DNA of 64,000 nt, taken from assembly GCA_020637295.1 (NCBI GenBank), contig JACJWF010000004.1:170228-234227 (forward strand), in the 5' to 3' direction. The position numbers were made by a program, and so were the translations under genes. Of the stretch, positions 11,045 through 24,155 are shown piece after piece. This stretch comes from Acidimicrobiaceae bacterium (GTDB lineage Bacteria > Actinomycetota > Acidimicrobiia > Acidimicrobiales > Ilumatobacteraceae). How positions within the stretch are numbered: the first letter of the stretch is position 1; each line of letters begins with the position of its first letter. The notes under the pieces were generated by a model, which was not told where the DNA came from, did no database searches, and was given only the letters and a program-made list of their open reading frames with translations.

Positions 11045-12436
11045 TCACATCTCGTCGGGCACGCCGGCGTCCAGCTCCACACCGGTCGAGTTGAGGAACA
11101 TCGCCACCAGCTGGTAGCCACCGACGGTGGCGACGAGATCCAGCCGTTGCCGGTCGGTGTAGTGGCGGCCGAGCGCGGCCCATGTGACGTCGCTGAGGCA
11201 GCGCTGTCCGTGGAGCTCGTCGGCGGCCGTCATCAGCAGACGGTCGAGGTCGCCCCACTGGCCCCTCGGCCCGACCTTCACCTGCTCGATCTCGTCGCGG
11301 GAGATGTCGCACCGCAGGGCGATGACGACGTGCTGGCCGAACTCGTACCGGCTGCGGCAGTTCCACCCGGTGCGCAGGATGAGCAACTCGCGGTCACGGG
11401 CGGACAGGCTGTTCTTCGACAGCACGTGCCCGGCGAAGACCAGCCAGCGGCGCAGCATGTCCGGGTGGTGGGCCAGCGTGCCGAAGATGTTCAGCGGTGT
11501 GCCGTCGGGCCCGTTGAGACCCTTGGCGAACAGCTCCTCCAGCCGCGGGTCGTCCTCCGCCCGCAGTGGGGTCAGCCTGGCGTGGGTGGGCATCACCCCG
11601 GCCAGTTCGGCGGCCAGGCCGGGCACCGTGGCGAGGATGCTGAGGTGGCCCTCGCCGGGCAGCACCCGCAGCGTCGCGGTGGGGATGACCTCTGCCGTGT
11701 GGCGGCCGTGGGCCAGCGGCACGGCCTCGTCGGCGTCGCCGTGCACCACCAGCACCGGCACGGTGATGGTCGCGGGGTCGAATGCCCACGGGCGCCCCTG
11801 GACCACCATGTCCTGGGCGAGGCTGCCGACGCCCTGGCGGAAGGCCTCGCCGACGCTGGCCACCAGCGCGTCGGCCAGCCGTTGGTCCGGGGCACTCGCT
11901 GCGTCGGGCGGGGGCTCCAGCCCCTCGGTGGTGAGGAAGCCGGCGCCGTCCGCGCCGTAGTGCTCCGCACACCAGCGCAGCGACGCGCCCTCGTCGCCGA
12001 GGCGGCGGAACGCGGTTTCCTCCGGTGTGTAGTGCGCCCATGCGCCCTCCCAGCCGAGGTCGCTGACGCCGGCCACCACGGCCGCGCCGCTGACCCGCTC
12101 CGCCAGGAGGGCCGCACACGCCACCGCGTACGGCCCGCCGGAGGACAGCCCGATCACGCCGAAACGACCGAGGCCCAGATGGTCGGCGAGGGCGGCGACG
12201 TCCGCCGGCCAGTCCTCACGCCGGCGGCCGGGCTGCGGTGAGGAGCCGCCGTAGCCGGGGCGGTCGGGGGCGATCACCAGCACGCCGCGGCGGCGCAGTT
12301 CGTCGTCGAACACGGCGACGTCGAGCCGGCTGGTCGGCGCTCCGTGGAAGTACATCACCGCCGGCCCGTCGGGGTCGCCGGTCTCGGTGAACGCCAGCGT
12401 GCGGCCGTCGGGGAGCGTCATCGTCAGGTCTCGCAT
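11045..12436 (-). CDS. Fusion protein: alpha/beta hydrolase plus carboxymuconolactone-decarboxylase (CMD/AhpD-like) domain
   Basis: MRDLTMTLPDG...GLSSGG (nucleophile)...GEGH runs without a stop into MPTHARL...WNCRSRYEFGQH (CMD motif). An internal ATG at 11593 could also yield a stand-alone CMD protein. Confidence 0.7.
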   Translation of the reverse strand: MRDLTMTLPDGRTLAFTETGDPDGPAVMYFHGAPTSRLDVAVFDDELRRRGVLVIAPDRPGYGGSSPQPGRRREDWPADVAALADHLGLGRFGVIGLSSGGPYAVACAALLAERVSGAAVVAGVSDLGWEGAWAHYTPEETAFRRLGDEGASLRWCAEHYGADGAGFLTTEGLEPPPDAASAPDQRLADALVASVGEAFRQGVGSLAQDMVVQGRPWAFDPATITVPVLVVHGDADEAVPLAHGRHTAEVIPTATLRVLPGEGHLSILATVPGLAAELAGVMPTHARLTPLRAEDDPRLEELFAKGLNGPDGTPLNIFGTLAHHPDMLRRWLVFAGHVLSKNSLSARDRELLILRTGWNCRSRYEFGQHVVIALRCDISRDEIEQVKVGPRGQWGDLDRLLMTAADELHGQRCLSDVTWAALGRHYTDRQRLDLVATVGGYQLVAMFLNSTGVELDAGVPDEM

Positions 12437-12547
12437 GCGCGCACCGTAGCCGGTGACCTTCGCGTGACCTTCGGCCCTGCGGGGCGTGAGCCGCCGGGGT
12501 GACACTGGAGGTGGGCCTACAGTGGTCGCACACGAAGGAGGTGCTCC

Positions 12548-12997
12548 ATGTCGGAGAAGGACCTCAGCAAGTGGATCGTCGTCGGTGTCGACGGTTCGGA
12601 GGATGGCGAGCGCGCCCTCCGCTGGGCGTTGGAGACGGCACAGCGGCGGGATCTGTCGATCCTGCTGGTGCACGGGCTGGACGTTGGCCTGTCTGCCGCG
12701 GATCCCTACGGCGGCGGGTACGTGCTGGAGCAGTTGCAGGACGCCGGCCGCCTGGCGCTCGAAGCCGCATCGAAGATGTGCGCCGACGCGGGGATCGAGT
12801 GCGAGTCCAAGCTGGAGATGGGTTCGCCCGGCTACCTGCTGGTCGAGGAGTCGCGTGGTGCGGCGATGCTGGTCATCGGCAGCCGTGGGCACGGTGGCTT
12901 CGTCGGCCTGTTGCTCGGGTCGGTGTCGAACGCCTGCGTGCACCACGCCCACTGCCCGGTGGTGGTCGTCCCGCCGCCGGAGCGTACGGATCGCTAG
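12548..12997 (+). CDS. Universal stress protein (UspA family)
   Basis: IVVGVDGSEDGERAL...GSRGHGGFVGLLLGSVS...HAHCPVVVV, 149 aa. Confidence 0.9.
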   Translation: MSEKDLSKWIVVGVDGSEDGERALRWALETAQRRDLSILLVHGLDVGLSAADPYGGGYVLEQLQDAGRLALEAASKMCADAGIECESKLEMGSPGYLLVEESRGAAMLVIGSRGHGGFVGLLLGSVSNACVHHAHCPVVVVPPPERTDR

Positions 12998-13045
12998 CAC
13001 CCGCCCGGCTCGGCGCTGCCGCGGCGGCGTGAGTACCGTCGCTGC

Positions 13046-14272
13046 ATGACCGAAGCCTGGATCATCGACGCCGTCCGCTCCCCCCGTGGCAAGGGGAAGC
13101 CCTCCGGCGCGCTGCACAACGTCCACCCCCAGCGCATCCTCGCCCAGGTGCTGAACGCCCTGCAGGCCCGCAACGGGTTCGACACCGCCGAGGTGGACGA
13201 CGTGATCATGGGGTGTGGCGCCGGGAGCGGCGACCACAGCATGGACATCGCCCGCATGGCCGCCCTCGACGCCGGCTGGAGCATCCAGGCGCCGGGCGTC
13301 ACCCTCAACCGCTTCTGCGGGTCCGGCCAGCAGGCGGTGAACTTCGCCGGCGCCGGCATCAAGGCCGGCTTCCAGGACCTCGTGGTCGCCGGCGGGGTGG
13401 AGAGCATGTCCCGCCCGGCGCCGATGCACGTGGACGGCTTCACCGCCAACAACAACCACCTGCGCGACCAGTACGACATGGTGCCCCAGGGCATCAGCGC
13501 CGACCTCATCGCCTCCGTCGAGGGGTTCAGCCGGGAGGAGCTCGACCAGCTGGCGGTGGACAGCCAGGCCCGCGCCGCCCGCGCCCAGGCGGAGGGCCGC
13601 TTCGACCGCTCGCTCGTGCCGATCTTCCACGACGACGGCACGCTGGCCCTGGCGATCGATGAGCATCCTCGCGCCGGCACCACGCTGGAGGACCTCGCCA
13701 AGCTGCAGCCCAGCTTCGCCGGGATGGGCGGGCACGTGCAGGAGGGGCGGGAGCTCAGCATCGACGCCACCGCGCTGAAGGCGTACCCGAACGTCAGCGA
13801 GATCCGCCACGTCCACCACGGTGGCAACTCGTCCGGTGTGGTGGACGGGGCCTCCGCCCTGCTGCTGGCCTCGCCCGACTACGCGCGTGCGCACGGAATG
13901 ACCCCGCGGGCCAAGGTCACGATGGCCGCGGTCGCGGGTGACGAGCCGGTGATCATGCTCACCGCGCCGGGGCCGGCCACCGACCTCGTGCTGCGCAAGG
14001 CCGGGATGGCGCTGTCGGACATCGACCTGTTCGAGGTCAACGAGGCGTTCGCTGCGGTGCTCCTGAAGTGGCTGCGCCACACGGGCGCGGACTGGGACAC
14101 GGTCAACGTCAACGGCGGGGCGATGGCCCTCGGTCACCCGATCGGCGCCACCGGCGGCATGCTGATCGGCACCGTGCTCGACGAGCTGGAGCGTCAGGAC
14201 AAGGAGACCGGCCTGGTCACCATGTGCACCGGCGGCGGCATGGCCACCGCCACCATCATCCAGCGGGTCTAG
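13046..14272 (+). CDS. Acetyl-CoA C-acyltransferase (thiolase)
   Basis: NRFCGSGQQAV active-site Cys, GGNSSG, C-terminal CTGGGMATA, 408 aa. Confidence 0.9.
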   Translation: MTEAWIIDAVRSPRGKGKPSGALHNVHPQRILAQVLNALQARNGFDTAEVDDVIMGCGAGSGDHSMDIARMAALDAGWSIQAPGVTLNRFCGSGQQAVNFAGAGIKAGFQDLVVAGGVESMSRPAPMHVDGFTANNNHLRDQYDMVPQGISADLIASVEGFSREELDQLAVDSQARAARAQAEGRFDRSLVPIFHDDGTLALAIDEHPRAGTTLEDLAKLQPSFAGMGGHVQEGRELSIDATALKAYPNVSEIRHVHHGGNSSGVVDGASALLLASPDYARAHGMTPRAKVTMAAVAGDEPVIMLTAPGPATDLVLRKAGMALSDIDLFEVNEAFAAVLLKWLRHTGADWDTVNVNGGAMALGHPIGATGGMLIGTVLDELERQDKETGLVTMCTGGGMATATIIQRV

Positions 14273-14284
14273 ATCGCCACCGGC

Positions 14285-15337
14285 TCAGAAGCGGTTGCGG
14301 AACCGCTGCTGATCCCAGCGGATGGAGTCGATCGCCTCGCTCACCCGCGCCATCAACTCGTCGTTGGAGTTGTCCTCCACCACCCGCATCGCCTCGGCGA
14401 GCGTGGCGCCGCGCTCCACCAGCGCCCGCCTGGCCACCGGGGTCTCGAGCACGTCGCAGAGGTGGACGACCTCTTCGATGGAGGTGATGCACGCCCGCAC
14501 CGGGCGGCCGTGCAGATCCACGTCCGGCAGCAGCAGCCGGTAGAAGACCTCCAGGGCCTCGTCGTCGAGGAACTCGCAGAGATGGTCGTCCCAGTCCAGC
14601 CAGCTGCGCACCACGGTGCGGGCCATCGCCACGTGGAAGAACGGGAAGACGCGTGCAGCGTCGGCGGGCAGCAGCGGGTGCTGCTGGAGGAACTGCTCCA
14701 GCGCCCGGTAGGCGTGGTACTTGCGCATCGCCGCCCGGCTGCCACCGGTGGCCACGGCCACGTCGTAGGTGGAGCGATGACGCCCACACTGGGCCAGCTG
14801 GCGCAGCAGGCGATCGCGCTGGCCGAGGTACCACTGGTCGCTGCTGTCGCGCGGTGCGTCCAGCAGGGACAGCACGAAGGCCGGGTCGGTGTCCGGCGCG
14901 ATCATCCGCACCGGGCAGGCCTGGGCCAGCGCCTGCACGTCGTCTGGAAGGTCCACGCCCATCTCGCCGGTGTCCTCCACCAGCTTGCGCAGGGCGGCGA
15001 CGTGCCACATCCCGTCGATGACGATGTAGCGGTCCTCGAACAGTGGGCGAACCAGCACCCGCTGCTCCATCACGCCCGGGTTGCGGACGATCGAGGACGT
15101 CAGCGCGCTGAGGTCCAGCTTCGCCAGGCGCTGGTAGGAGCGCAGCGGCACGAACGCCATCAGGAACGCCGGGTCGGTGCCGAGCTCCGGTTCGTCCACC
15201 GCCGCCAGCTCGTCGCCGGGGTCCAGCACCAGCTGTTGCAGTGGCAGGAACCCGGGGGTCACCAACGGGGCGCGACCGTCCATCACGTGATCGCCACCGC
15301 GGGCGCGGCGGTCACCCTGCGTCGATGAGGAACCCAT
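14285..15337 (-). CDS. Hypothetical protein with a ParB/Srx-like N-terminal fold (degenerate GxxR box)
   Basis: VLVRPLFEDRYIVIDGMWHVAALRKL resembles the ParB-N box, with GERR replaced by GMWH. The rest is unrecognised. The track start at 15370 is followed by low-GC3 codons, so I prefer the ATG at 15337. Confidence 0.45.
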   Translation of the reverse strand: MGSSSTQGDRRARGGDHVMDGRAPLVTPGFLPLQQLVLDPGDELAAVDEPELGTDPAFLMAFVPLRSYQRLAKLDLSALTSSIVRNPGVMEQRVLVRPLFEDRYIVIDGMWHVAALRKLVEDTGEMGVDLPDDVQALAQACPVRMIAPDTDPAFVLSLLDAPRDSSDQWYLGQRDRLLRQLAQCGRHRSTYDVAVATGGSRAAMRKYHAYRALEQFLQQHPLLPADAARVFPFFHVAMARTVVRSWLDWDDHLCEFLDDEALEVFYRLLLPDVDLHGRPVRACITSIEEVVHLCDVLETPVARRALVERGATLAEAMRVVEDNSNDELMARVSEAIDSIRWDQQRFRNRF

Positions 15338-15430
15338 TTCACTGACGCGTATCGTCACGAATTGCCGCAATCTTGAGGCTTTCGTGTGAATACGTGCGCC
15401 AGCGCGACGGCCGAATCGGCGGCCTGCGGG

Positions 15431-16561
15431 CTACTCCATCATGGACTCCACCCGTTGCACGGCCTCGATGAACTCCTCCACCATGTCCATCACGACACGG
15501 GCGGCGGGCTTCGGCTCGTTCATCGACCCGACGATCTGGCCGACGAAGTAGTTGGCCAGCTTCGCCGAACCGCTGGCCGGGTCGTGGGCGCCGCGCGCGA
15601 TGCGCTCCTCGGCGGCGCCGACGAGCAGCGGCTGCAGCGGCATGGGCAGAGTGCCGGGCGAGTTGGGGCCCTCCCATTCCTCGGTCCACGCGGACTTCAA
15701 CTGGCGGGCCGGCTTGCCGGTCTTGCTCCGCGACCGGACGGTGTCCGACGACGTGGCGGCGAGGAACTTCTGCTTCACCGTCGGGTGGGTCTCGGCCTCG
15801 TCGGTGGTCAGCCACACCGAGCCGCACCACACGCCGTCCGCGCCGAGCGCCAGCGCCGCCGCCAGCTGACGGCCACCGCCGATCCCACCCGCTGCCAGCA
15901 CCGGCACGGGGGCGACGGCATCCACGACCTCCGGCACCAGCACCATCGTGCCGATCTCGCCGGTGTGCCCTCCGGCTTCGCCGCCCTGGGCGATGATCAG
16001 GTCCACCCCTGCGGCCACGTGGCGCTGGGCATGCACGGCCTTGCCGGCCAACGCGCCGACGAGGATGCCCTGGTCGTGCGCACGCTGCACCATGTCCGAC
16101 GGCGGGGTGCCGAGCGCGTTGACCAGCAGCTTGATCGGGTGCCCGAAGGCGATCTCCATCATGTGCGACGCCAGCGAGTAGCTCATCGGCGGAGCGTCGC
16201 CACGGGATGCGTCGCGGCGCGACTCGCCGAGCGGCGGGGGCACGTCATAGCGGTTCAGCAGATCTTCCAGGAAGTCGCGGTGGGCCTGCGGGATGCGGTC
16301 ACGAAGCTGGGACGCAGTGACCTCGCCCTCGGCCTTGCCTTCGTACTTGGCCGGCACGATGAGGTCCACGCCGAACGGCTTGTCGCCCACCTGCTCCTTA
16401 ATCCAGGCCAGGTCGATGTCCAGCTGGGCGGGGGTCAGCGCCTCGGCCCCCAGCACACCCATGCCGCCCGCCTTGGTGACGGCCGCGGCAACGTCGCGGC
16501 AGTGGGTGAAGGCGAGGATCGGGAACTCGATCCCGAGCATGTCGCAGATGCGGTTCTTCAT
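15431..16561 (-). CDS. Nitronate monooxygenase (2-nitropropane dioxygenase family, FMN-dependent)
   Basis: MLGIEFPILAFTH...GGMGVLG...AQGGEAGGHTGEIGT, 376 aa. Confidence 0.85.
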   Translation of the reverse strand: MKNRICDMLGIEFPILAFTHCRDVAAAVTKAGGMGVLGAEALTPAQLDIDLAWIKEQVGDKPFGVDLIVPAKYEGKAEGEVTASQLRDRIPQAHRDFLEDLLNRYDVPPPLGESRRDASRGDAPPMSYSLASHMMEIAFGHPIKLLVNALGTPPSDMVQRAHDQGILVGALAGKAVHAQRHVAAGVDLIIAQGGEAGGHTGEIGTMVLVPEVVDAVAPVPVLAAGGIGGGRQLAAALALGADGVWCGSVWLTTDEAETHPTVKQKFLAATSSDTVRSRSKTGKPARQLKSAWTEEWEGPNSPGTLPMPLQPLLVGAAEERIARGAHDPASGSAKLANYFVGQIVGSMNEPKPAARVVMDMVEEFIEAVQRVESMME

Positions 16562-16570
16562 GGGCCGAGA

Positions 16571-18055
16571 CTACGAGCGGCGCCGCCCCCGCTTCGTGCC
16601 GGACGCCGGTGGCGCTGCCGCCGCCGCCCGCGCCAGCAACTCGTCCATGCCGCTGCTGATCCCCTCCGCCAGCACGTGCACATCGGGCACGGTGTCCCAA
16701 TCGCCGGTGACCCCGAAGGCGACCTCGCCGTTGTAGGACAGGATCGCCACGCCGGTGCGGACCCCCTGCGAGAGCGGCACGAACGGGTAGTAGTGGAGCA
16801 TCTCGCGACCGCACGCGTACAGCGGGATCTGCGGCCCGGGCACGTTGGTGGTGACGGTGTTGACGCTGCGCTGGGGCGCCCGGCGCATCACCGTCACCGC
16901 GGTGCGCAGGCCCACGGACAGCAGCACCGGAGGGGCGAAGCCGGCCAGCTCGGCCAGCACGTTGCCCGCCACGGCCTGGTGGCTGTCCTTCAGGTCCTGC
17001 ATCTGGGCGCGGATGGCCTGCAGCCGCTCGGCGGGGTCCTCGATGCCCACTGGCAGCTCGGCGATCATCGCGCTGACCTGGTTGTTGTAGGTGTGGTCGC
17101 CAGAGGTGCGCACGGACACGGGCACGAGGGTGCGGATGGCGGTGCCGGCCGCATCCGGACCCACCAGCTCCCCACGGTGCACCAGCAGGTCGCGGAAGCC
17201 CTTGGTGATCGCCGCCAGCACGACGTCGTTCACCGTGCCGCCGAGGCCGGCGCGCACCCGCTTCACGTCGGCGAGGGTGGTGCACGCGCACGCCCACCGC
17301 CGGTGCGGCCCGATGGTGCCCTCGATGCTGAGTGGCACGTTGGGAGCCAGTCGGCGGCCCAGCGCCCCCATGCCCTGCACCGTGGCGGCCATCTCGGCGG
17401 CGATCCGCTTCGGGGCGCGCAGGCCTCTGCGGGCCCAGCGGCCGAGCTCGGCCGGGCTGACGAGCGCGTCGGCCACGGCATCCACGACGAGGGCAGTCGG
17501 GGTCGGCTCATCGGCCGGTCGCCAGTCGTCGGCCACCGGTGGCGAGCCCTCCGGCGTGGTGTCCAGCACCACGGCCATCAGGTCGGTGCCGCTGATGCCG
17601 TCGACCATGCAGTGGTGCACCTTGGAGATCAGCGCCCACGTGCCGTCGTCGAGGCCCTCGACCACCCACGTCTCCCACAGCGGACGGTGGCGGTCCAGCT
17701 GCTGGCTCATCAGCCGGCCCATCAGCCGGTGGAGATCGGCCCGCGTGCCGGGCGGCGGCAGCGCGGTGTGGCGGATGTGGTAATCGAGGCGGAAGTGGGG
17801 GTCGTCGGCCCAGACCGGCCGGCCCACCGCACCGGGCACGAAGTGCACCTTCTGGCGGTAGCGGGGCACCAGCGGCAGCTTGCCGCGGAACAGGTCGACC
17901 AGGTCGTCGTAGGCCGGCGCCGGCCCCTCGAAGATGGCGCACGAGGCAATGTGCATGTGGTTGACGTCGTCTTCGATGTGCAAGAACGCAGCATCCAGCG
18001 GGCTCATCCGGTCCACGGGCTCGTCCACCTCCGTGTGTCGCGGGCGTACCGGCAT
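16571..18055 (-). CDS. Wax ester synthase/diacylglycerol acyltransferase (WS/DGAT)
   Basis: HHCMVDGISG (HHxxxDG) active site with an N-terminal MSPLDAAFLHIED. The start is either 18055 (MPVRP) or 18007 (MSPLD). Confidence 0.85.
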   Translation of the reverse strand: MPVRPRHTEVDEPVDRMSPLDAAFLHIEDDVNHMHIASCAIFEGPAPAYDDLVDLFRGKLPLVPRYRQKVHFVPGAVGRPVWADDPHFRLDYHIRHTALPPPGTRADLHRLMGRLMSQQLDRHRPLWETWVVEGLDDGTWALISKVHHCMVDGISGTDLMAVVLDTTPEGSPPVADDWRPADEPTPTALVVDAVADALVSPAELGRWARRGLRAPKRIAAEMAATVQGMGALGRRLAPNVPLSIEGTIGPHRRWACACTTLADVKRVRAGLGGTVNDVVLAAITKGFRDLLVHRGELVGPDAAGTAIRTLVPVSVRTSGDHTYNNQVSAMIAELPVGIEDPAERLQAIRAQMQDLKDSHQAVAGNVLAELAGFAPPVLLSVGLRTAVTVMRRAPQRSVNTVTTNVPGPQIPLYACGREMLHYYPFVPLSQGVRTGVAILSYNGEVAFGVTGDWDTVPDVHVLAEGISSGMDELLARAAAAAPPASGTKRGRRRS

Positions 18056-18185
18056 GGTCGCGCCACCGATCGCCGAAGGGCGAGGGCCGAACGTCATCGG
18101 CCCGGCCGACGAACGGACGGCGGACCTGCGCCGCGGGGACTTGCGGCCCATGGCGGCGGTGGGCGGCCGGGCGCACACTGGGGGC

Positions 18186-19289
18186 ATGGACACCGAAGCG
18201 CTCTTCGGGCGCAGCCTGCTGACCACCCACGACTGGTCCGTGGCGGACCTGGACACCCTGCTGGCAGTTGCAGCCGCGCTGGAATTGCTCGATCGCGCCG
18301 GGGTGCGCACCGAACTGCTGCCCGACGAGTTGGCCTACGCGATGTTCTTCGACAACTCGACGCGCACCAAGTCCGCCTGGGCCGGCGCAGCGGCGCGGTT
18401 GGGCATGCAGCCGGTGATCGTGGACGGCAGCAGCACCCAGGTGGCCCACGGCGAGACGGCCGAGGAGACCGGGGCGATGCTGGGGATGAACGCCCACGCG
18501 CTGGGCGTACGGCACGACCTGATCCTCGGCGAGGGCAACTCCTTCATGCGCGACGTGCTGCGCGGCATCAGCGACTACCTCGCGGCCACGGCCGATCCAC
18601 GGGTGGTGCCGGTGGTGAACCTGCAGTGCGACGTGGATCACCCCACCCAGTCGCTCGCCGACCTGCTGTGGCTCCGCGAGCACTTCGGTGGCGACGTCGC
18701 CGGGCGGCGGATCACCGTGAGTTGGGCGTACTCGCCGAGCTACGCCAAGCCGCTGTCCGTGCCACAGGGCGTGGTCAGCCTGCTCACCCGCTTCGGCGCC
18801 CACGTCACGCTCGCCCACCCCGAGGGCTACGACCTGCTGCCCGAGCCGATGGCGTGGGCGGCCGAGGGGGCGGCGGCGTCGGGTGGCTCGTTCCGCGTCA
18901 CCCACGACATGGACGACGCCTTCGCCGGTGCGGATGCGGTGTATCCCAAGAGTTGGGGACCACTGGCCTTGATGACCGAACGGGTGGCCGCCAACCGGGC
19001 GGGCGACGGCGCGGCGATGCGGGACATCGAGCAGCGCGCGCTCACCACCAACGCTGCGCACCGCGACTGGATCTGCGACGAGCGGCGCATGGGCCTCACC
19101 CGTGACGCGCTGTACCTGCACTGCCTGCCGGCCGACATCGGCGCCGAGGTGACGTCGGGCGTCATGGAGCGCTTCCGCGTGCAGGTGGCCCGCGAGGCGA
19201 ACAAGAAGGTGTACGTGATCATGGCGATGCTCGCCGTGGCGAAGGTGCCCGACCTGCCCGGCCGCCTGGCGGCCCTGGCCGGGCCATGA
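18186..19289 (+). CDS. ygeW: YgeW-type (knotted) carbamoyltransferase
   Basis: Long stretches match my recollection of E. coli YgeW: FFDNSTRTK, VNLQCDVDHPTQSLADLLWLREHFG, WAYSPSYAKPLSVPQG, LAHPEGYDL, ASGGSF, YPKSW, HCLPADI. Confidence 0.8.
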   Translation: MDTEALFGRSLLTTHDWSVADLDTLLAVAAALELLDRAGVRTELLPDELAYAMFFDNSTRTKSAWAGAAARLGMQPVIVDGSSTQVAHGETAEETGAMLGMNAHALGVRHDLILGEGNSFMRDVLRGISDYLAATADPRVVPVVNLQCDVDHPTQSLADLLWLREHFGGDVAGRRITVSWAYSPSYAKPLSVPQGVVSLLTRFGAHVTLAHPEGYDLLPEPMAWAAEGAAASGGSFRVTHDMDDAFAGADAVYPKSWGPLALMTERVAANRAGDGAAMRDIEQRALTTNAAHRDWICDERRMGLTRDALYLHCLPADIGAEVTSGVMERFRVQVAREANKKVYVIMAMLAVAKVPDLPGRLAALAGP

Positions 19290-19302
19290 GGGGAGCTCCC
19301 TG

Positions 19303-20850
19303 ATGATCGAATCCGCTGCCGACGCGCCGACCAGCCTGGACCACCGGGTCGGCGAACTGGCCGACCGCTACCTGCCCCTCGCGGTGAGCGTCCTGAAGGA
19401 GGCCATCCGCATCCCTGCCGATGACCAGGACGACCCGCAGGCCGGGCTGTCCAACCACGAGGGGCACCGGCTGCAGTTCCTGCGCGGTGCCATCGTCGAC
19501 CTGGCCGCGGTGGAGCGCGAGGGCGACGTGGGTTTCGATGACTTCGGCAACCTGGTGTGGACGGTCAGCGATCCGTTCGACGGGGTGGCGCCGGAGCACC
19601 GCCGGGTGATCATGCTGGACGGCCACAGCGACACGGTGCAGGCCCTGCGCAGCCAGTGGGCCGAGAAGCTCGGCGCCGCGGTCGACCCGTACGACGGCCG
19701 CCGCGACGGTGTGCCGCTCGACGAAGGCGCGCTGCGCGCCCAGCTGGGTTGGGTGCCACCGGAGGAGGAGTGGCACCACCTCCTGTTCGGTCGTGGCGCG
19801 GCGGATCAGCTGGCCGGTGTCGTGTCACAGATCATCGCCACCAAGATCCTCCTCGAGCTGCGCGACGAGGGTGCGCTGCGGGGGTGCATGGTGCGCGCCT
19901 ACGCCACCGTCGCGGAGGAGGACAACGACGGCGGCGGGCCCCGCCACCTGGTGCGCGACGTGCTGCCGGGAGCACCGGCCGATCTGGTGCCCGACGTGGT
20001 GATCCTCACCGAGGGCACGGGCGATGCGGTGAAGGGCGCGCTGGGCATCTATCGCGGGCAGCGCGGCCGGATGCAGATCGAGGTCACCGTGGTCGGCCGG
20101 TCGTGCCACGGCTCGATGCCGGCCCTGGGGCTGAACCCTCTGGAGCACGGCGGGGCGATCCTCGCCGAAGCAGCAGCCCGCCACGCCCGTGGTGAGGGGA
20201 TGCTCGACCACCCGGTGGTGGGCAGGGGCACCCGCACGGCGAGCTGGGCGGTGCTGGACACGCCGAGCGACTGCGCCGTGCCGGACCGTTTCACGTTCCG
20301 GTTCGACCGCCGGCTGACGGTGGGCGAGACGCCGGAGCAGGCGGTCGCCGAGATCGACGGGCTGGACGCCGTGGCCGCAGCACGGGCCGCCGGGCTGGAC
20401 GTGCTGGTGGCGGTGCCCCGCTACACCACGCCCACATGGGCCGGCTGCGCGGTGGACAACGAGCAGGTCTACCCGGGCTGGATCACGCCCGAGGACCATC
20501 CAGCCGTCACCGCCGCGGTGGAGGCCTACCGCCGCGTCGTGTCACCCCTGGTGCAGGAGCCGCCAGGCGGTGCCACGGGTGCCATGCTGCGGGCCGAGCC
20601 CCGGGTGGACACATGGGTGTTCTCCACGGACGGTGTGGGCTTCCCGGTGCCGGCGGGCGATGAGAGCATCGCCGTGCCGCCCGCCAAGCGGTGGGTGGTG
20701 TCGGGGGCGGTGCGTCACCCGGCCATGTTCGGCATCGGCGCCGGCGTGGAGCAGAACACCCATCGCATCGGCGAGTTCGTGGACACCCGCGAGCTCCGCC
20801 ACGCCATCGCCGTCCTGGCCCGCTTCCCCAGCCTCTTCGCCGCCACCTGA
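19303..20850 (+). CDS. ygeY: YgeY-like M20-family amidohydrolase/peptidase
   Basis: YRGQRGRMQIEVTVVGRSCHGSMP, DRRLTVGET and WVFSTDG match remembered YgeY blocks. At 515 aa it is longer than E. coli YgeY, with insertions. Confidence 0.7.
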   Translation: MIESAADAPTSLDHRVGELADRYLPLAVSVLKEAIRIPADDQDDPQAGLSNHEGHRLQFLRGAIVDLAAVEREGDVGFDDFGNLVWTVSDPFDGVAPEHRRVIMLDGHSDTVQALRSQWAEKLGAAVDPYDGRRDGVPLDEGALRAQLGWVPPEEEWHHLLFGRGAADQLAGVVSQIIATKILLELRDEGALRGCMVRAYATVAEEDNDGGGPRHLVRDVLPGAPADLVPDVVILTEGTGDAVKGALGIYRGQRGRMQIEVTVVGRSCHGSMPALGLNPLEHGGAILAEAAARHARGEGMLDHPVVGRGTRTASWAVLDTPSDCAVPDRFTFRFDRRLTVGETPEQAVAEIDGLDAVAAARAAGLDVLVAVPRYTTPTWAGCAVDNEQVYPGWITPEDHPAVTAAVEAYRRVVSPLVQEPPGGATGAMLRAEPRVDTWVFSTDGVGFPVPAGDESIAVPPAKRWVVSGAVRHPAMFGIGAGVEQNTHRIGEFVDTRELRHAIAVLARFPSLFAAT

Positions 20851-20884
20851 CCGGCGGGACGGGGTCGGGGACCCGGACGGCGGG

Positions 20885-21463
20885 TCAGGAGTGCTGCGTG
20901 CGGTAGCGCCAGGTGCGGATGGAGTCCGGCCAGGCGCGGGGCGGCAGGCCGGCCTTGCGCCACAGCGCGCCCACCCACCCGGTGGCGTCGGGGATCTCCT
21001 CCCACACGGACGGCAGGAACGTGGCCCGGTGCCGTCCGGCCTCCACCAGCACGCCGTCCACGCCGGGGCGCAGCGTCGCCACGAGCGCGTCGTAGCCACC
21101 GACCTCGAACGGCTCCATCGGGGTCAGCACCGATACCTCGACCGAGAGGTCGTCCAACTCGTCCGGGCCCAGCGGCGGGAAGCGTGGGTCGTTGAACGCC
21201 GCTGCCCGCGCCCGGTCGGCGGCGGCCAGCGCCAGCGGGAGTTGCGGTGTCATCGTCCCGATGCAGCCGCGCAGCGCGCCGCCGCGGCGCAGGGTGACGA
21301 ACACCGCACCGTCGCGCCGCAGCGCGGCCGGCTCGTCGGCGGTGGAAGGGTCCCAATGATGACGGCGGGTGACGGCGTCGACGACGGCGCGGTGGGCGAT
21401 CGCTGCCAGCCGGGCGAGCTCGGCGCTGGTGAGGTCGGGGGCTGTGCTGGCGTGGGCGTTCAT
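20885..21463 (-). CDS. amrA: AmmeMemoRadiSam system protein A (AMMECR1 domain)
   Basis: GAVFVTLRRGGALRGCIGT...RATFLPSVWEE, 192 aa. ATGA overlap with the upstream MEMO-like gene. Confidence 0.85.
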   Translation of the reverse strand: MNAHASTAPDLTSAELARLAAIAHRAVVDAVTRRHHWDPSTADEPAALRRDGAVFVTLRRGGALRGCIGTMTPQLPLALAAADRARAAAFNDPRFPPLGPDELDDLSVEVSVLTPMEPFEVGGYDALVATLRPGVDGVLVEAGRHRATFLPSVWEEIPDATGWVGALWRKAGLPPRAWPDSIRTWRYRTQHS

Positions 21464-22266
21464 CGGATCTCGAAGCTCCCGTAGCCGACCACCCGGTCCT
21501 CCGGCCCGGCGGTGTCGCCCGACGTGCGCAGGTCCAGCAGGCGCACACGCTGGCCGTGACGCAGGCACAGCTCCATCGCCGCCCGCACCCCGCTGACACC
21601 GCAGGCCTGCTCGCCGCCCAGCCCCGCCCACTGCAGGGCGACGACGGCCTCGGCCGTGGCCAGGTCGATGGCCCGGGCCTCGTGCAGCGGGTGGTAGTGG
21701 CTGAGGTCGGTGGACACCACCACCAGCGTGTCCTCCTTGCCCCACCAGGGGGTGAGGGCGTCGGCGATCTGCGCCGTGCCGTTGCCGCCGGCGATGACCG
21801 GCACCAACTGCCACCCGCCGTCCAGGCTGCGCTGGAGGAAGGGGACGTGCACCTCCAGGCTGTGCTCCTCGGCGTGGGCGCGGTCGTCCACCACCACACC
21901 GGGCAGCGTGGCCATGGCGGCGCACGCCTCGGTGTCCACCTCCACATGCCCGAGTGGCGTCGCCCACGCGGCGGCGCTGCTGAGCGCCAGCCCGCGCACG
22001 GGCGCACGGTGCGGCACCCCGACCAGCACCACCCGCCGGATCTGCGCGGCCCAGGGGCGGACGAGGGCGTACGCCGTGGCGGCGACCGGGCCGGAGTAGA
22101 CGTAGCCGGCGTGGGGGGCGATCACCGCCACCGGGGGTCGGGTCGGGGTGCCGGTGGCCTGCGGCGGGCGGGCAGCGGCAAGCAACCCGTCGACCGTCCT
22201 GGCCAGTGCCTCCGGGTCGGCCGGGTAGAAGGTCCCCGCCAGTGCGGGCGGTCGAATGCGTGTCAT
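21460..22266 (-). CDS. amrB: AmmeMemoRadiSam system protein B (MEMO1-like)
   Basis: MTRIRPPALAGTFYPADPEAL...VIAPHAGYVYSGPVAA...STDLSHYH, 268 aa. Confidence 0.85.
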   Translation of the reverse strand: MTRIRPPALAGTFYPADPEALARTVDGLLAAARPPQATGTPTRPPVAVIAPHAGYVYSGPVAATAYALVRPWAAQIRRVVLVGVPHRAPVRGLALSSAAAWATPLGHVEVDTEACAAMATLPGVVVDDRAHAEEHSLEVHVPFLQRSLDGGWQLVPVIAGGNGTAQIADALTPWWGKEDTLVVVSTDLSHYHPLHEARAIDLATAEAVVALQWAGLGGEQACGVSGVRAAMELCLRHGQRVRLLDLRTSGDTAGPEDRVVGYGSFEIR

Positions 22267-22285
22267 CGAAACCACCTTCCAGTGC

Positions 22286-23413
22286 TCACGGAGCGTGTGC
22301 CGCAGCCACATCGGCCGGGCTCGACGACAGGCGCACCGGGCGCCGCCGCCTGCCCCACTCGCCGGGTGGGCCGTCGAACACCCCTGCAACCGGGGCGCCG
22401 CACTCGGTGCAGCGTCCGTCGCCCGTCAGCCGGTACGCATCGATGCGGTACCAGTCGCGCACCACGGTGGGCGCACCGCACTCCGGGCAGTGGGTGGTGC
22501 CGCCGACCGTGTCGTGCACATTGCCGGTGTACACGTAGCGCAGGCCGTTGGCGATGGCCACCCGGCGGGCCCGCCGCAGCGTCTCGGGCGGTGTGGGCGG
22601 CACGTCGAGCATCCGGAAGTCGGGGTGGAAGGCGCTGAAGTGCAGCGGCACGTCCGGGCCGAGGTGGTCCGCCACCCACGCGCTCAGCCGGGTGAGCTCG
22701 GCGTCGGAGTCGTTGTGCCCAGGGATGACGAGGGTGGTGACCTCCACCCACACCCCGTTGGCCACCAGCCACTCCAGGGTGTCCAGCACGGGCTGCAGGT
22801 GACCGCCGCACACATGGCGGTAGAAGTCCTCGGTGAACCCCTTGAGATCGATGTTCGCCGCATCGATGCGCGAGAATAGTTCCGCCCGCGGCCCCTCGTG
22901 CACGTAGCCGGCGCTCACCGCCACGGTGCGCAGGCCGGCCGCGTGGCAGGCGTCGGCCGTGTCCGCGGCGTACTCGAGGAAGACCACCGGGTCGTTGTAG
23001 GTGAAGGCAACGCTGGCGCAGCCTTGGGCGATCGCAGCGCGGGCGATGCCCTCCGGGCCGGCGGCATCGGCGAGGGTGTCCGTGCTGCGGCTCTTGGAGA
23101 TGTCCCAGTTCTGGCAGAAGCGACACGCCAGGTTGCAGCCGGCCGTCCCGAACGACAGCACGGACGAGCCGGGCAGGAAGTGGTTGAGTGGCTTCTTCTC
23201 GATCGGGTCCACGCAGAAGCCACTGCTGCGGCCGTACGTGGTGAGCACGATCTCGTCGTGCTCGCGGGCCCGCACGAAGCACAGCCCGCGCTGTCCCTCG
23301 CGCAGCGAGCACCCCCTCGGGCACACGTCGCAGCGGATCCGCCCGTCGTCCAGGCGGGTCCACCACCGTGTCGGGAAGCTCGCTGGCGGCTGTTCCACGC
23401 CTTCAGGATGCAC
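22286..23413 (-). CDS. amrS: AmmeMemoRadiSam system radical SAM enzyme
   Basis: CNLACRFCQNW (CX3CX2C), an N-terminal Cys motif IRCDVCPRGCSL, and a C-terminal CPECG...CTECG ribbon. I chose the GTG start at 23413 (alternative 23398) because the upstream ATGs would overlap the divergent lipoprotein gene. Confidence 0.8.
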   Translation of the reverse strand: MHPEGVEQPPASFPTRWWTRLDDGRIRCDVCPRGCSLREGQRGLCFVRAREHDEIVLTTYGRSSGFCVDPIEKKPLNHFLPGSSVLSFGTAGCNLACRFCQNWDISKSRSTDTLADAAGPEGIARAAIAQGCASVAFTYNDPVVFLEYAADTADACHAAGLRTVAVSAGYVHEGPRAELFSRIDAANIDLKGFTEDFYRHVCGGHLQPVLDTLEWLVANGVWVEVTTLVIPGHNDSDAELTRLSAWVADHLGPDVPLHFSAFHPDFRMLDVPPTPPETLRRARRVAIANGLRYVYTGNVHDTVGGTTHCPECGAPTVVRDWYRIDAYRLTGDGRCTECGAPVAGVFDGPPGEWGRRRRPVRLSSSPADVAAAHAP

Positions 23414-23492
23414 CCTCGGCGCCCGCCGCGTACAGCGCCCTTGGTCCTTCGCCGGGCCGGGTGCGGCGGGCGGCGCGGGGTACCATGCCGCG

Positions 23493-24155
23493 ATGCGAGG
23501 GGCGGGGAGGGCCATCACCGGGCTGTTCGGGGCTGTCATGGTCCTCATCACCGGGTGCTCCGCGGACTCCACGGTCACCGTGGTGCGCGACGCCGACGAC
23601 GTGCAGGTGATGTCGCCCGAGCAGGTGCTGCAGCAGCGGCTTCCGGCGGTCACCACCACGGTGCCGGGCGCCTCGGACAGTTCGGTGCCGGCCGGAGCCG
23701 GTCAGCCACCGGCCACCACCGCGGCGGCCGACACCATCCCGCTCAACCAGGACGACCGCCCGCCGGAGGTGCGCCTGTTCGCCGCGTTCGGGGAGTTCCG
23801 CGGCTGCCTGGAGGACAAGGGCTACGTGATCGAGGGCAACCTGCTGGACCCGAACAACCCGGCCATGCAGGACAGCGCGTACCGCGACGCGGTCATCACC
23901 TGCGCCGCCCGTTCGGACATCGTCGCCGTCCTCCAGGAGGTGCAGGCCACTCGGGCCAACCTCACGCCGGAGGAGGTGGAGCAGCGCAACGAGGTGTTCG
24001 TCGCGTTGCGCGACTGCCTGCGCGACAAGGGATGGACGGTGGAAGCCACCACCAGCGAGATCGGCCTCCTGGAGCCCACCGAGTTCCACGACGCCGACGG
24101 CGAGCTCGACGAGCGGGACATCAACCAGTGCCTGTCGGAGATGAACATCGGATGA
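23493..24155 (+). CDS. Lipoprotein with an internally duplicated 2-Cys module, function unknown
   Basis: Lipobox LITGC. Two copies of [FL]RxCLxDKG[YW]x[IV]E...C, at about aa 95-140 and 165-214. Confidence 0.7.
   Translation: MRGAGRAITGLFGAVMVLITGCSADSTVTVVRDADDVQVMSPEQVLQQRLPAVTTTVPGASDSSVPAGAGQPPATTAAADTIPLNQDDRPPEVRLFAAFGEFRGCLEDKGYVIEGNLLDPNNPAMQDSAYRDAVITCAARSDIVAVLQEVQATRANLTPEEVEQRNEVFVALRDCLRDKGWTVEATTSEIGLLEPTEFHDADGELDERDINQCLSEMNIG

Follow-up and report, generated by a model that had tools for sequence, protein, structure and literature searches.

An AmmeMemoRadiSam gene trio in an Acidimicrobiaceae genome: family identity, distribution, neighbours and candidate chemistry

What kind of system is formed by a radical S-adenosylmethionine (SAM) enzyme, a MEMO-family protein and an AMMECR1-family protein that are encoded side by side, on what might they act, and do they depend on the genes around them? 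These questions are raised by three consecutive minus-strand genes at positions 20885-23413 of a 64,000-nucleotide stretch of DNA, hereafter the window, from an Acidimicrobiaceae bacterium (GenBank assembly GCA_020637295.1, contig JACJWF010000004.1, positions 170,228 to 234,227; the assembly comprises 4.1 Mb in 39 contigs, with 70.7% GC). The association of such genes, known as AmmeMemoRadiSam, was described by Balaji and Aravind in 2007 (PMC2034487) and corresponds to the "Memo-Ammecr1 systems" of Burroughs et al. 2019, as cited in PMC7159879. A literature search recovered no functional study of the AmmeMemoRadiSam system. A preliminary description of the window had read the three genes as a complete triad of this kind and had proposed two neighbourhood hypotheses, one for the divergent envelope operon on one side and one for a convergent ygeW-ygeY pair on the other. 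Our analysis indicates that the trio is real, that it was read correctly and that it is an ordinary copy of an already known system. Very probably, it constitutes a canonical cytoplasmic AmmeMemoRadiSam operon, that is, a self-contained accessory cassette that has been inherited within Acidimicrobiia and has often been lost.

The three genes and their products

The radical SAM gene (22286-23413, GTG start, 375 aa) matched the NCBIfam model TIGR04337 from position 1 to 349 of its 349 positions, with 615 bits against a cut-off of 220 (E 3e-185); the search of the whole genome gave 614.9 bits for the same gene. The MEMO-family gene (21460-22266, ATG start, 268 aa), which encodes AmmeMemoRadiSam protein B with its LigB-type fold, scored 241.9 bits against TIGR04336 (cut-off 26, E 7e-72), and the AMMECR1-family gene (20885-21463, ATG start, 192 aa), which encodes AmmeMemoRadiSam protein A, scored 179.8 bits against TIGR04335 (cut-off 99, E 3e-53), both over the full length of the model. 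The corresponding Pfam families were also recovered: Radical_SAM with 67.6 bits, Memo with 169.1 bits (cut-off 27) and AMMECR1 with 149 bits (cut-off 25). The check by NCBIfam/TIGRFAM hidden Markov models (HMMs) that the preliminary description had proposed for proteins A and B and the radical SAM enzyme thus returned scores above the trusted cut-off for every member of the triad. The trio is a genuine member of the curated NCBIfam AmmeMemoRadiSam system, and none of our results contradicted this identity.

The radical SAM enzyme carries all the motifs that had been quoted for it, namely CNLACRFC, CxxCPxGC and CPECG...CTECG, the second of which reads CDVCPRGC at residues 28-35. To assess their conservation, we considered 79 homologous sequences spanning Actinomycetota, Pseudomonadota, Chloroflexota, Gemmatimonadota, Nitrospirota, Myxococcota and Acidobacteriota. 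The CX3CX2C motif, formed by Cys93, Cys97 and Cys100 within GCNLACRFCQNW, was invariant in 79 of 79. Two further four-cysteine sets were invariant or nearly so: C28, C31, C35 and C45 in the N-terminal part, and Cys309 and Cys312 together with Cys335 and Cys338 in the C-terminal CPECG...CTECG segment, a zinc-ribbon-like module. C156 was likewise invariant. Overall, 133 of the 375 residues were at least 97% conserved across these sequences and at least seven phyla. The subclade of the window type shows 64-94% identity over at least seven bacterial phyla and a bin labelled as a haloarchaeon, aerobes included; the copy in that bin (L066) is 67% identical to the window protein. Across the same 21 loci, the radical SAM enzyme had a median identity of 68% to its counterpart in the window, compared with 50% for MEMO and 46% for AMMECR1. 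When the terminal regions of the enzyme were searched separately, the C-terminal 80 residues yielded zinc-ribbon hits only below threshold, and the N-terminal 80 residues matched no Pfam family. The TIGR04337 hits in Actinomycetota fall into two score classes, one of about 600-660 bits that covers the full length and represents the window type, and the other of about 230-410 bits; some hits of the latter class stop near model position 288 and hence lack the C-terminal four-cysteine ribbon.

The residues expected of the two partner proteins are also in place. In MEMO, H52, H86, H135, H190 and C222 were invariant in 60 homologues, and the alignment places H52 and H86 in PHAGY and G.xH segments that are conserved with human MEMO1. 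The ligands reported for the human protein are His49, His81 and Cys244 (PMC9477392). We take H52 and H86 as the likely equivalents of His49 and His81, going by the aligned segments rather than by a mapping of residue numbers, and C222 as a putative counterpart of Cys244 on the strength of its motif, the alignment ending at residue 192. The residues of the putative His/His/His/Cys metal site of MEMO are intact. In AMMECR1, Cys67 of the RGCIG motif was invariant in 28 homologues, and the DPRF motif is present as well; motifs of these types have been proposed as the AMMECR1 active site (PMC2034487). The nearest sequence relatives of AMMECR1 among Protein Data Bank (PDB) entries are PH0010 (1vaj), MM0484 and ST0229.

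Two features point to a close association of MEMO and AMMECR1. The stop codon of MEMO (TGA) and the start codon of AMMECR1 (ATG) overlap in an ATGA at 21460-21463 of the minus strand, as read from the sequence and as the preliminary description had noted, which implies that their translation is coupled. In addition, in loci from alpha- and gammaproteobacterial metagenome-assembled genomes (MAGs), a single open reading frame (ORF) of roughly 470 aa encodes the two proteins as a fusion that retains every catalytic motif. These fusion ORFs lie on the minus strand, divergent from the radical SAM gene (L042, 8538-9938; L096, 8509-9912; L077, 8443-9906). The fusions, which keep the order of the coupled genes in the window, support a physical complex of the two proteins. 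The HMM matches begin at residue 15 in the radical SAM enzyme, residue 5 in MEMO and residue 18 in AMMECR1, which leaves no space before the HMM cores for a twin-arginine (Tat) or general secretory (Sec) signal peptide on any of the three proteins; the trio is thus assigned to the cytoplasm.

Distribution and descent

To determine how widely the trio is shared, we searched 61 genomes of relatives with profiles for each of the three genes. The radical SAM gene scored above its cut-off in 14 of them, and 13 of these 14 also carried MEMO and AMMECR1; in the remaining carrier, the radical SAM copy is cut by the end of a contig. None of the three genes was detected in 46 relatives, and one (G058) had a degenerate MEMO-AMMECR1 fusion alone. 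With the full trio in 13 of the 61 genomes and none of it in 46, the three genes appear to be gained and lost as a unit and to be dispensable in this order. The fusion of G058, a genome that lacks the radical SAM gene, lies on the plus strand at about 2100-3460 of contig C127 (locus L112). Its MEMO metal ligands and its AMMECR1 cleft cysteine are replaced (PSCGLS, DFAS and RGSAG), changes that probably mark the fusion as a relic devoid of catalytic activity or as a repurposed protein.

The preliminary description had drawn attention to the actinobacterial context of the triad. The trio does occur in an actinobacterium, but this setting is not special: the radical SAM gene was above its cut-off in 95 of 301 sampled Actinomycetota genomes, about a third, and 72 of 198 Actinomycetota genera were matched at E <= 1e-40. 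An actinobacterial setting is therefore not unusual for this system.

MAGs of Acidimicrobiales and Acidimicrobiia supplied the closest radical SAM sequences. In a tree of the 79 radical SAM sequences, the window copy falls in a clade with 99% support in the Shimodaira-Hasegawa-like approximate likelihood ratio test (SH-aLRT), and this clade consists solely of genomes of the same genus and Acidimicrobiia MAGs. For Actinomycetota as a whole, two label changes on the tree suffice. The well-supported clade and the small number of changes together fit vertical descent with repeated loss. We also considered a recent horizontal acquisition of the trio and rejected it, given the nesting of the window copy among Acidimicrobiia sequences and the GC content at third codon positions (GC3) of the three genes, which at 0.91-0.94 equals that of the neighbouring genes.

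Several loci depart from this general picture. In a Propionicimonas MAG (L092), the radical SAM gene falls inside a betaproteobacterial clade, and the genes follow the proteobacterial order of MEMO, AMMECR1 and radical SAM; a transfer of this trio across phyla is likely. In two relatives, a gene of the trio is split across two reading frames, MEMO at 8624-9414 of L024 (G011) and the radical SAM gene at 9453-10494 of L031 (G044), which points to a decaying cassette or to a fault in the assembly. Farther afield, all three genes were present in Thermotoga maritima, Methanosarcina acetivorans, Sulfolobus acidocaldarius and Methanocaldococcus jannaschii, and none of them in laboratory E. coli. Thermus thermophilus matched the radical SAM and MEMO models and not the AMMECR1 model, and Haloferax volcanii matched the AMMECR1 model only; the trio is thus not complete everywhere.

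Candidate substrates and mechanism

The composition of the cassette and the conserved residues of its products suggest an outline of the chemistry. The radical SAM enzyme would reductively cleave SAM at a [4Fe-4S] cluster bound by the CX3CX2C motif, and the resulting 5'-deoxyadenosyl radical would take a hydrogen atom from the substrate. The MEMO-AMMECR1 complex would hold the substrate or process it further, MEMO contributing its His/His/His/Cys metal site and AMMECR1 its cleft cysteine. No substrate gene accompanies the cassette, so the substrate must be one of the partner proteins or else a ubiquitous molecule of the cell.

Among these options, a nucleotide base, either free or in RNA, is our first candidate, although a tentative one. 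Modification of RNA bases was proposed for this gene association when it was described (PMC2034487). The candidate rests also on the zinc-ribbon tail of the radical SAM enzyme and on the dispensable, patchy distribution of the trio, both of which resemble those of RNA-modification enzymes. Burroughs and colleagues are said to have linked Memo, in 2019, to the modification of nucleotide bases and of isoprenoids. Another small molecule or a lipid, such as an isoprenoid or a cofactor, is possible with a lower probability. That the substrate might be a partner protein, as the closest fold would suggest, we consider rather unlikely, and we hold the same view of a substrate outside all of these classes.

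Some observations weigh against the reading that we prefer. All three proteins are acidic (isoelectric point of about 6, net charge of -2 to -7), which is weak evidence against direct binding of nucleic acids. The closest fold belongs to the pyruvate formate-lyase activating enzyme (PFL-AE), which acts on a protein and not on a nucleotide. The third concerns oxygen. AMMECR1 (PF01871) has been identified as the strongest Pfam marker of anaerobes, being found in 3.4% of aerobes versus 50.7% of anaerobes (PMC13386939, 2026). The lineage of the trio, however, looks aerobic: the class III ribonucleotide reductase NrdD (PF13597) was found in 0 of the 61 relatives. Its absence from all of them also means that the relatives offer no contrast by which to relate the trio to anaerobic markers.

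An AlphaFold2 model of the radical SAM enzyme (mean predicted local distance difference test score (pLDDT) 87, predicted template modelling score (pTM) 0.87) shows a core shaped as a partial barrel, preceded by a beta-rich module at the N-terminus and followed by beta hairpins at the C-terminus. With this model as the query, the top fold match in the PDB was PFL-AE (3cb8 and 8fo0), with an E-value of about 1e-13 and a target-normalised TM-score of 0.77-0.80. RlmN, QueE, TYW1 and LipA followed at about 1e-7 or weaker, some six orders of magnitude behind. Searching the PDB by sequence turned up no structure for this family of radical SAM enzymes; the sole hit was again PFL-AE (E of about 5e-8).

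The alternative that survives best builds on this likeness. It posits that the radical SAM enzyme, resembling a PFL activase, acts on its own partner, either the invariant G-C-I-G loop of AMMECR1 or MEMO, and installs on it a radical or a covalent change, so that the modified partner would be the real catalyst. Much of what we observed could be accommodated in this way. The nearest fold is that of PFL-AE in complex with a peptide substrate; the three genes co-occur strictly, in 13 of 13 genomes, and neither a fourth gene nor a precursor peptide travels with the cassette; within the modelled core, confidence is lowest (pLDDT 65-75) in the loop that follows the CX3CX2C motif, at about residues 95-120, as might be expected of a substrate clamp; and the bias of AMMECR1 toward anaerobes would suit an oxygen-sensitive radical protein. 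Against this stand the absence of a glycyl-radical signature from AMMECR1 and of a Gly_radical domain from the genome, as well as a lineage without anaerobic markers. To our knowledge, eukaryotes retain AMMECR1 and MEMO1 without a partner radical SAM enzyme, which also counts against an activase. Furthermore, the radical SAM enzyme is far more conserved (68%) than its supposed protein substrates (46-50%), whereas PFL and PFL-AE display the reverse pattern. We therefore regard an activation of the partner proteins as unlikely on balance. Its most specific form, in which the window-type radical SAM enzyme would act on the G-C-I-G loop of AMMECR1 within the MEMO-AMMECR1 complex, is improbable. 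If it were true, AMMECR1 and MEMO would constitute a new class of enzyme, activated or modified by a radical, and this easily expressed cassette of three genes would for the first time make human AMMECR1 and MEMO1 accessible to biochemistry.

Neighbouring genes and comparison with known systems

The reading of the trio as a self-contained cassette can be examined further by means of its flanks. At its upstream end, the radical SAM gene, whose start is at 23413, diverges from a lipoprotein/MacB-type operon, whose lipoprotein gene starts at 23493; the distance of 80 bp between the two starts is as previously described. The 79-nt intergenic region between them (23414-23492) contains GC-rich inverted repeats and presumably houses the promoters of both the trio and the operon. 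Extending the radical SAM ORF upstream in frame would run into the divergent lipoprotein gene. Within the trio, 19 nt (22267-22285, minus strand) with a Shine-Dalgarno-like GGAAGGTGG intervene between the stop codon of the radical SAM gene and the start of MEMO. At the downstream end, the stop codon of AMMECR1 (20885-20887) faces that of a ygeY-like gene (20848-20850) over a gap of 34 nt. Both stop codons are covered by an 18-nt inverted repeat (20846-20889) with a predicted RNA folding energy of -29.5 kcal/mol and a z-score of -2.2; the repeat lacks a T-tract and may act as a bidirectional terminator hairpin. A scan of positions 20600-23800 for consensus promoters and terminators returned 0 sites and no sigma-70-type consensus, such a consensus being a poor fit for an actinobacterium with a GC content as high as 72%.

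We next compared the surroundings of the radical SAM gene, over about 20 kb each, in 10 genomes of the same genus or order and in 80 loci of other lineages. The order radical SAM, MEMO, AMMECR1 is preserved in nine of the 10 loci of the same genus or order. In one relative (L022 of G048), an insertion of about 5 kb (11400-16400) separates MEMO from AMMECR1; it contains an opposite-strand gene for a 1245-aa HIT-PLD-ResIII/helicase protein and an HlyIII-family membrane protein, and nothing else. The flanks are conserved far less. Among the loci of the same genus or order, the lipoprotein/MacB-type operon adjoins the trio in L025, L027 and L030 only, lying about 2.8 kb off in the last of these, and the ygeW/ygeY-like pair adjoins it in L025 and L030 only. 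Neither of them was found next to the trio in any of the 80 loci of other lineages, where the ATP-binding cassette (ABC) hits were generic ATPases only, with 30-44% identity.

Consistent with these comparisons, an all-against-all BLAST clustering of the ORFs from 75 loci, combined with a GC3 filter, brought to light no conserved fourth gene. The only families that recurred were those of the radical SAM enzyme, in 70 loci, and of MEMO, in 49, along with antisense shadow ORFs of both; next in frequency came a generic ABC ATPase, seen in 14 loci, and a short-chain dehydrogenase, seen in 11. AMMECR1 formed no cluster in this run; its adjacency rests on tblastn searches of the same-order loci and the 80 other loci. 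Nor did we find a conserved membrane redox gene near the trio, either in the 80 loci of other lineages or in the clustering of the 75 loci. With its flanks confined to a few genomes of the same genus and seen in none of the 80 loci elsewhere, the arrangement in the window represents local synteny, and the cassette is self-contained.

These data bear on both of the neighbourhood links that had been suggested. According to the first, the trio works with the divergent envelope operon, for instance by making or modifying a product that the MacB-type pump handles. The narrow divergent gap of 79 nt speaks for such a link, as does the fact that the two are adjacent in L025 and L027 and lie less tightly together in L030. 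However, the pump is not beside the trio in six of the nine other same-order loci or in any of the 80 loci of other lineages, the gap in L030 is about 2.8 kb, and no protein of the trio has space for an export signal. The link is thus kept in two to three genomes of the same genus only; it is very unlikely, and the comparative data have largely refuted it already.

The second suggestion, a functional tie between the trio and the convergent genes for a ygeW-like carbamoyltransferase and a ygeY-like M20 hydrolase, fares no better. The end of the triad does converge on these genes as the preliminary description had claimed, across the 34-nt gap and with a shared hairpin, and the arrangement recurs in L025 and L030. 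However, their naming as ygeW and ygeY does not hold. The ygeW-like neighbour scored 370.5 bits against a cut-off of 453 for NF005538 and 346.7 against 500 for TIGR03316, and the ygeY-like neighbour scored 196.3 against 321 for NF009555 and 176.9 against 321.5 for TIGR03526. As these scores lie below the equivalog cut-offs, we refer to the neighbours as ygeW-like and ygeY-like, that is, related proteins rather than equivalogs. The pair is also not beside the trio in L027, in other loci of the same genus or order, or in any of the 80 loci of other lineages. Moreover, in an Ilumatobacteraceae MAG (L046), the gene next to the end of AMMECR1 is a same-strand gene for a wax ester synthase/diacylglycerol acyltransferase (WS/DGAT; 12574-13947); in the window (16571-20850), the ygeW/ygeY-like pair, encoded on the opposite strand, stands between the trio and a WS/DGAT gene on the trio's strand. 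The comparison suggests that the pair was inserted between them in the lineage of the window. A functional tie to these genes is accordingly exceedingly unlikely and, again, largely refuted. As for the ygeY-like hydrolase itself (19303-20850, 515 aa), the YgeY models match it from residue 156-158 onward, corresponding to about position 100 of their roughly 400 positions, and its N-terminal 155 or so residues lie outside these matches.

The last alternative, in which the radical SAM protein is an ordinary PflA-like activase of a glycyl-radical enzyme that merely adjoins MEMO and AMMECR1, draws on its PFL-AE-like fold and on weak hits to PFLA and other activase models, but has a negligible probability and was rejected, since the protein scored 53.3 bits against a cut-off of 231.75 for TIGR02493 as opposed to 615 bits for TIGR04337, the glycyl-radical domain Gly_radical (PF01228) had 0 matches in the host genome, NrdD is missing from all the relatives and the gene co-occurs strictly with MEMO and AMMECR1. 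The possibility of a pyruvate formate-lyase activase, which had been raised at the outset as a potential refutation, is thereby dismissed.

How much this copy contributes can be stated briefly. Standard NCBIfam models alone would name all three genes, and the copy adds little beyond automatic annotation. The wider system is of interest since the human homologues of AMMECR1 and MEMO are linked to disease, and AMMECR1 has been ranked among the top-priority uncharacterised archaeal families (PMC6393860). The by-products of the analysis are modest: the flanks gave a clean negative result, the strict co-occurrence of the trio could be put in figures, the radical SAM enzyme turned out to be unusually strongly conserved, with two additional invariant four-cysteine sites, and intact natural MEMO-AMMECR1 fusions came to light.

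Finally, we compared the canonical cassette of the window with systems that are already known. The nearest solved fold to the radical SAM enzyme is that of PflA (3c8f, 3cb8 and 8fo0), which shares its CX3CX2C radical SAM core. The structural alignment of the two shows 18-20% sequence identity; unlike PflA, the window enzyme has about 130 more residues, which make up the N-terminal four-cysteine beta module and the C-terminal four-cysteine ribbon. MEMO belongs to the same family as human MEMO1 (3bcz, 7l5c and 7m8h; E 2.5e-17), and AMMECR1 to that of archaeal PH0010 (1vaj; E 4e-22). The gene order of radical SAM, MEMO and AMMECR1 is that of other Actinomycetota loci; in contrast, Proteobacteria mostly have MEMO, AMMECR1 and radical SAM in this order, or a radical SAM gene divergent from a fused MEMO-AMMECR1 gene. 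With the AmmeMemoRadiSam system itself, the trio in the window shares the adjacency of its genes, their common direction, intact putative active-site residues and strict co-occurrence, and it differs from that system in nothing of substance.

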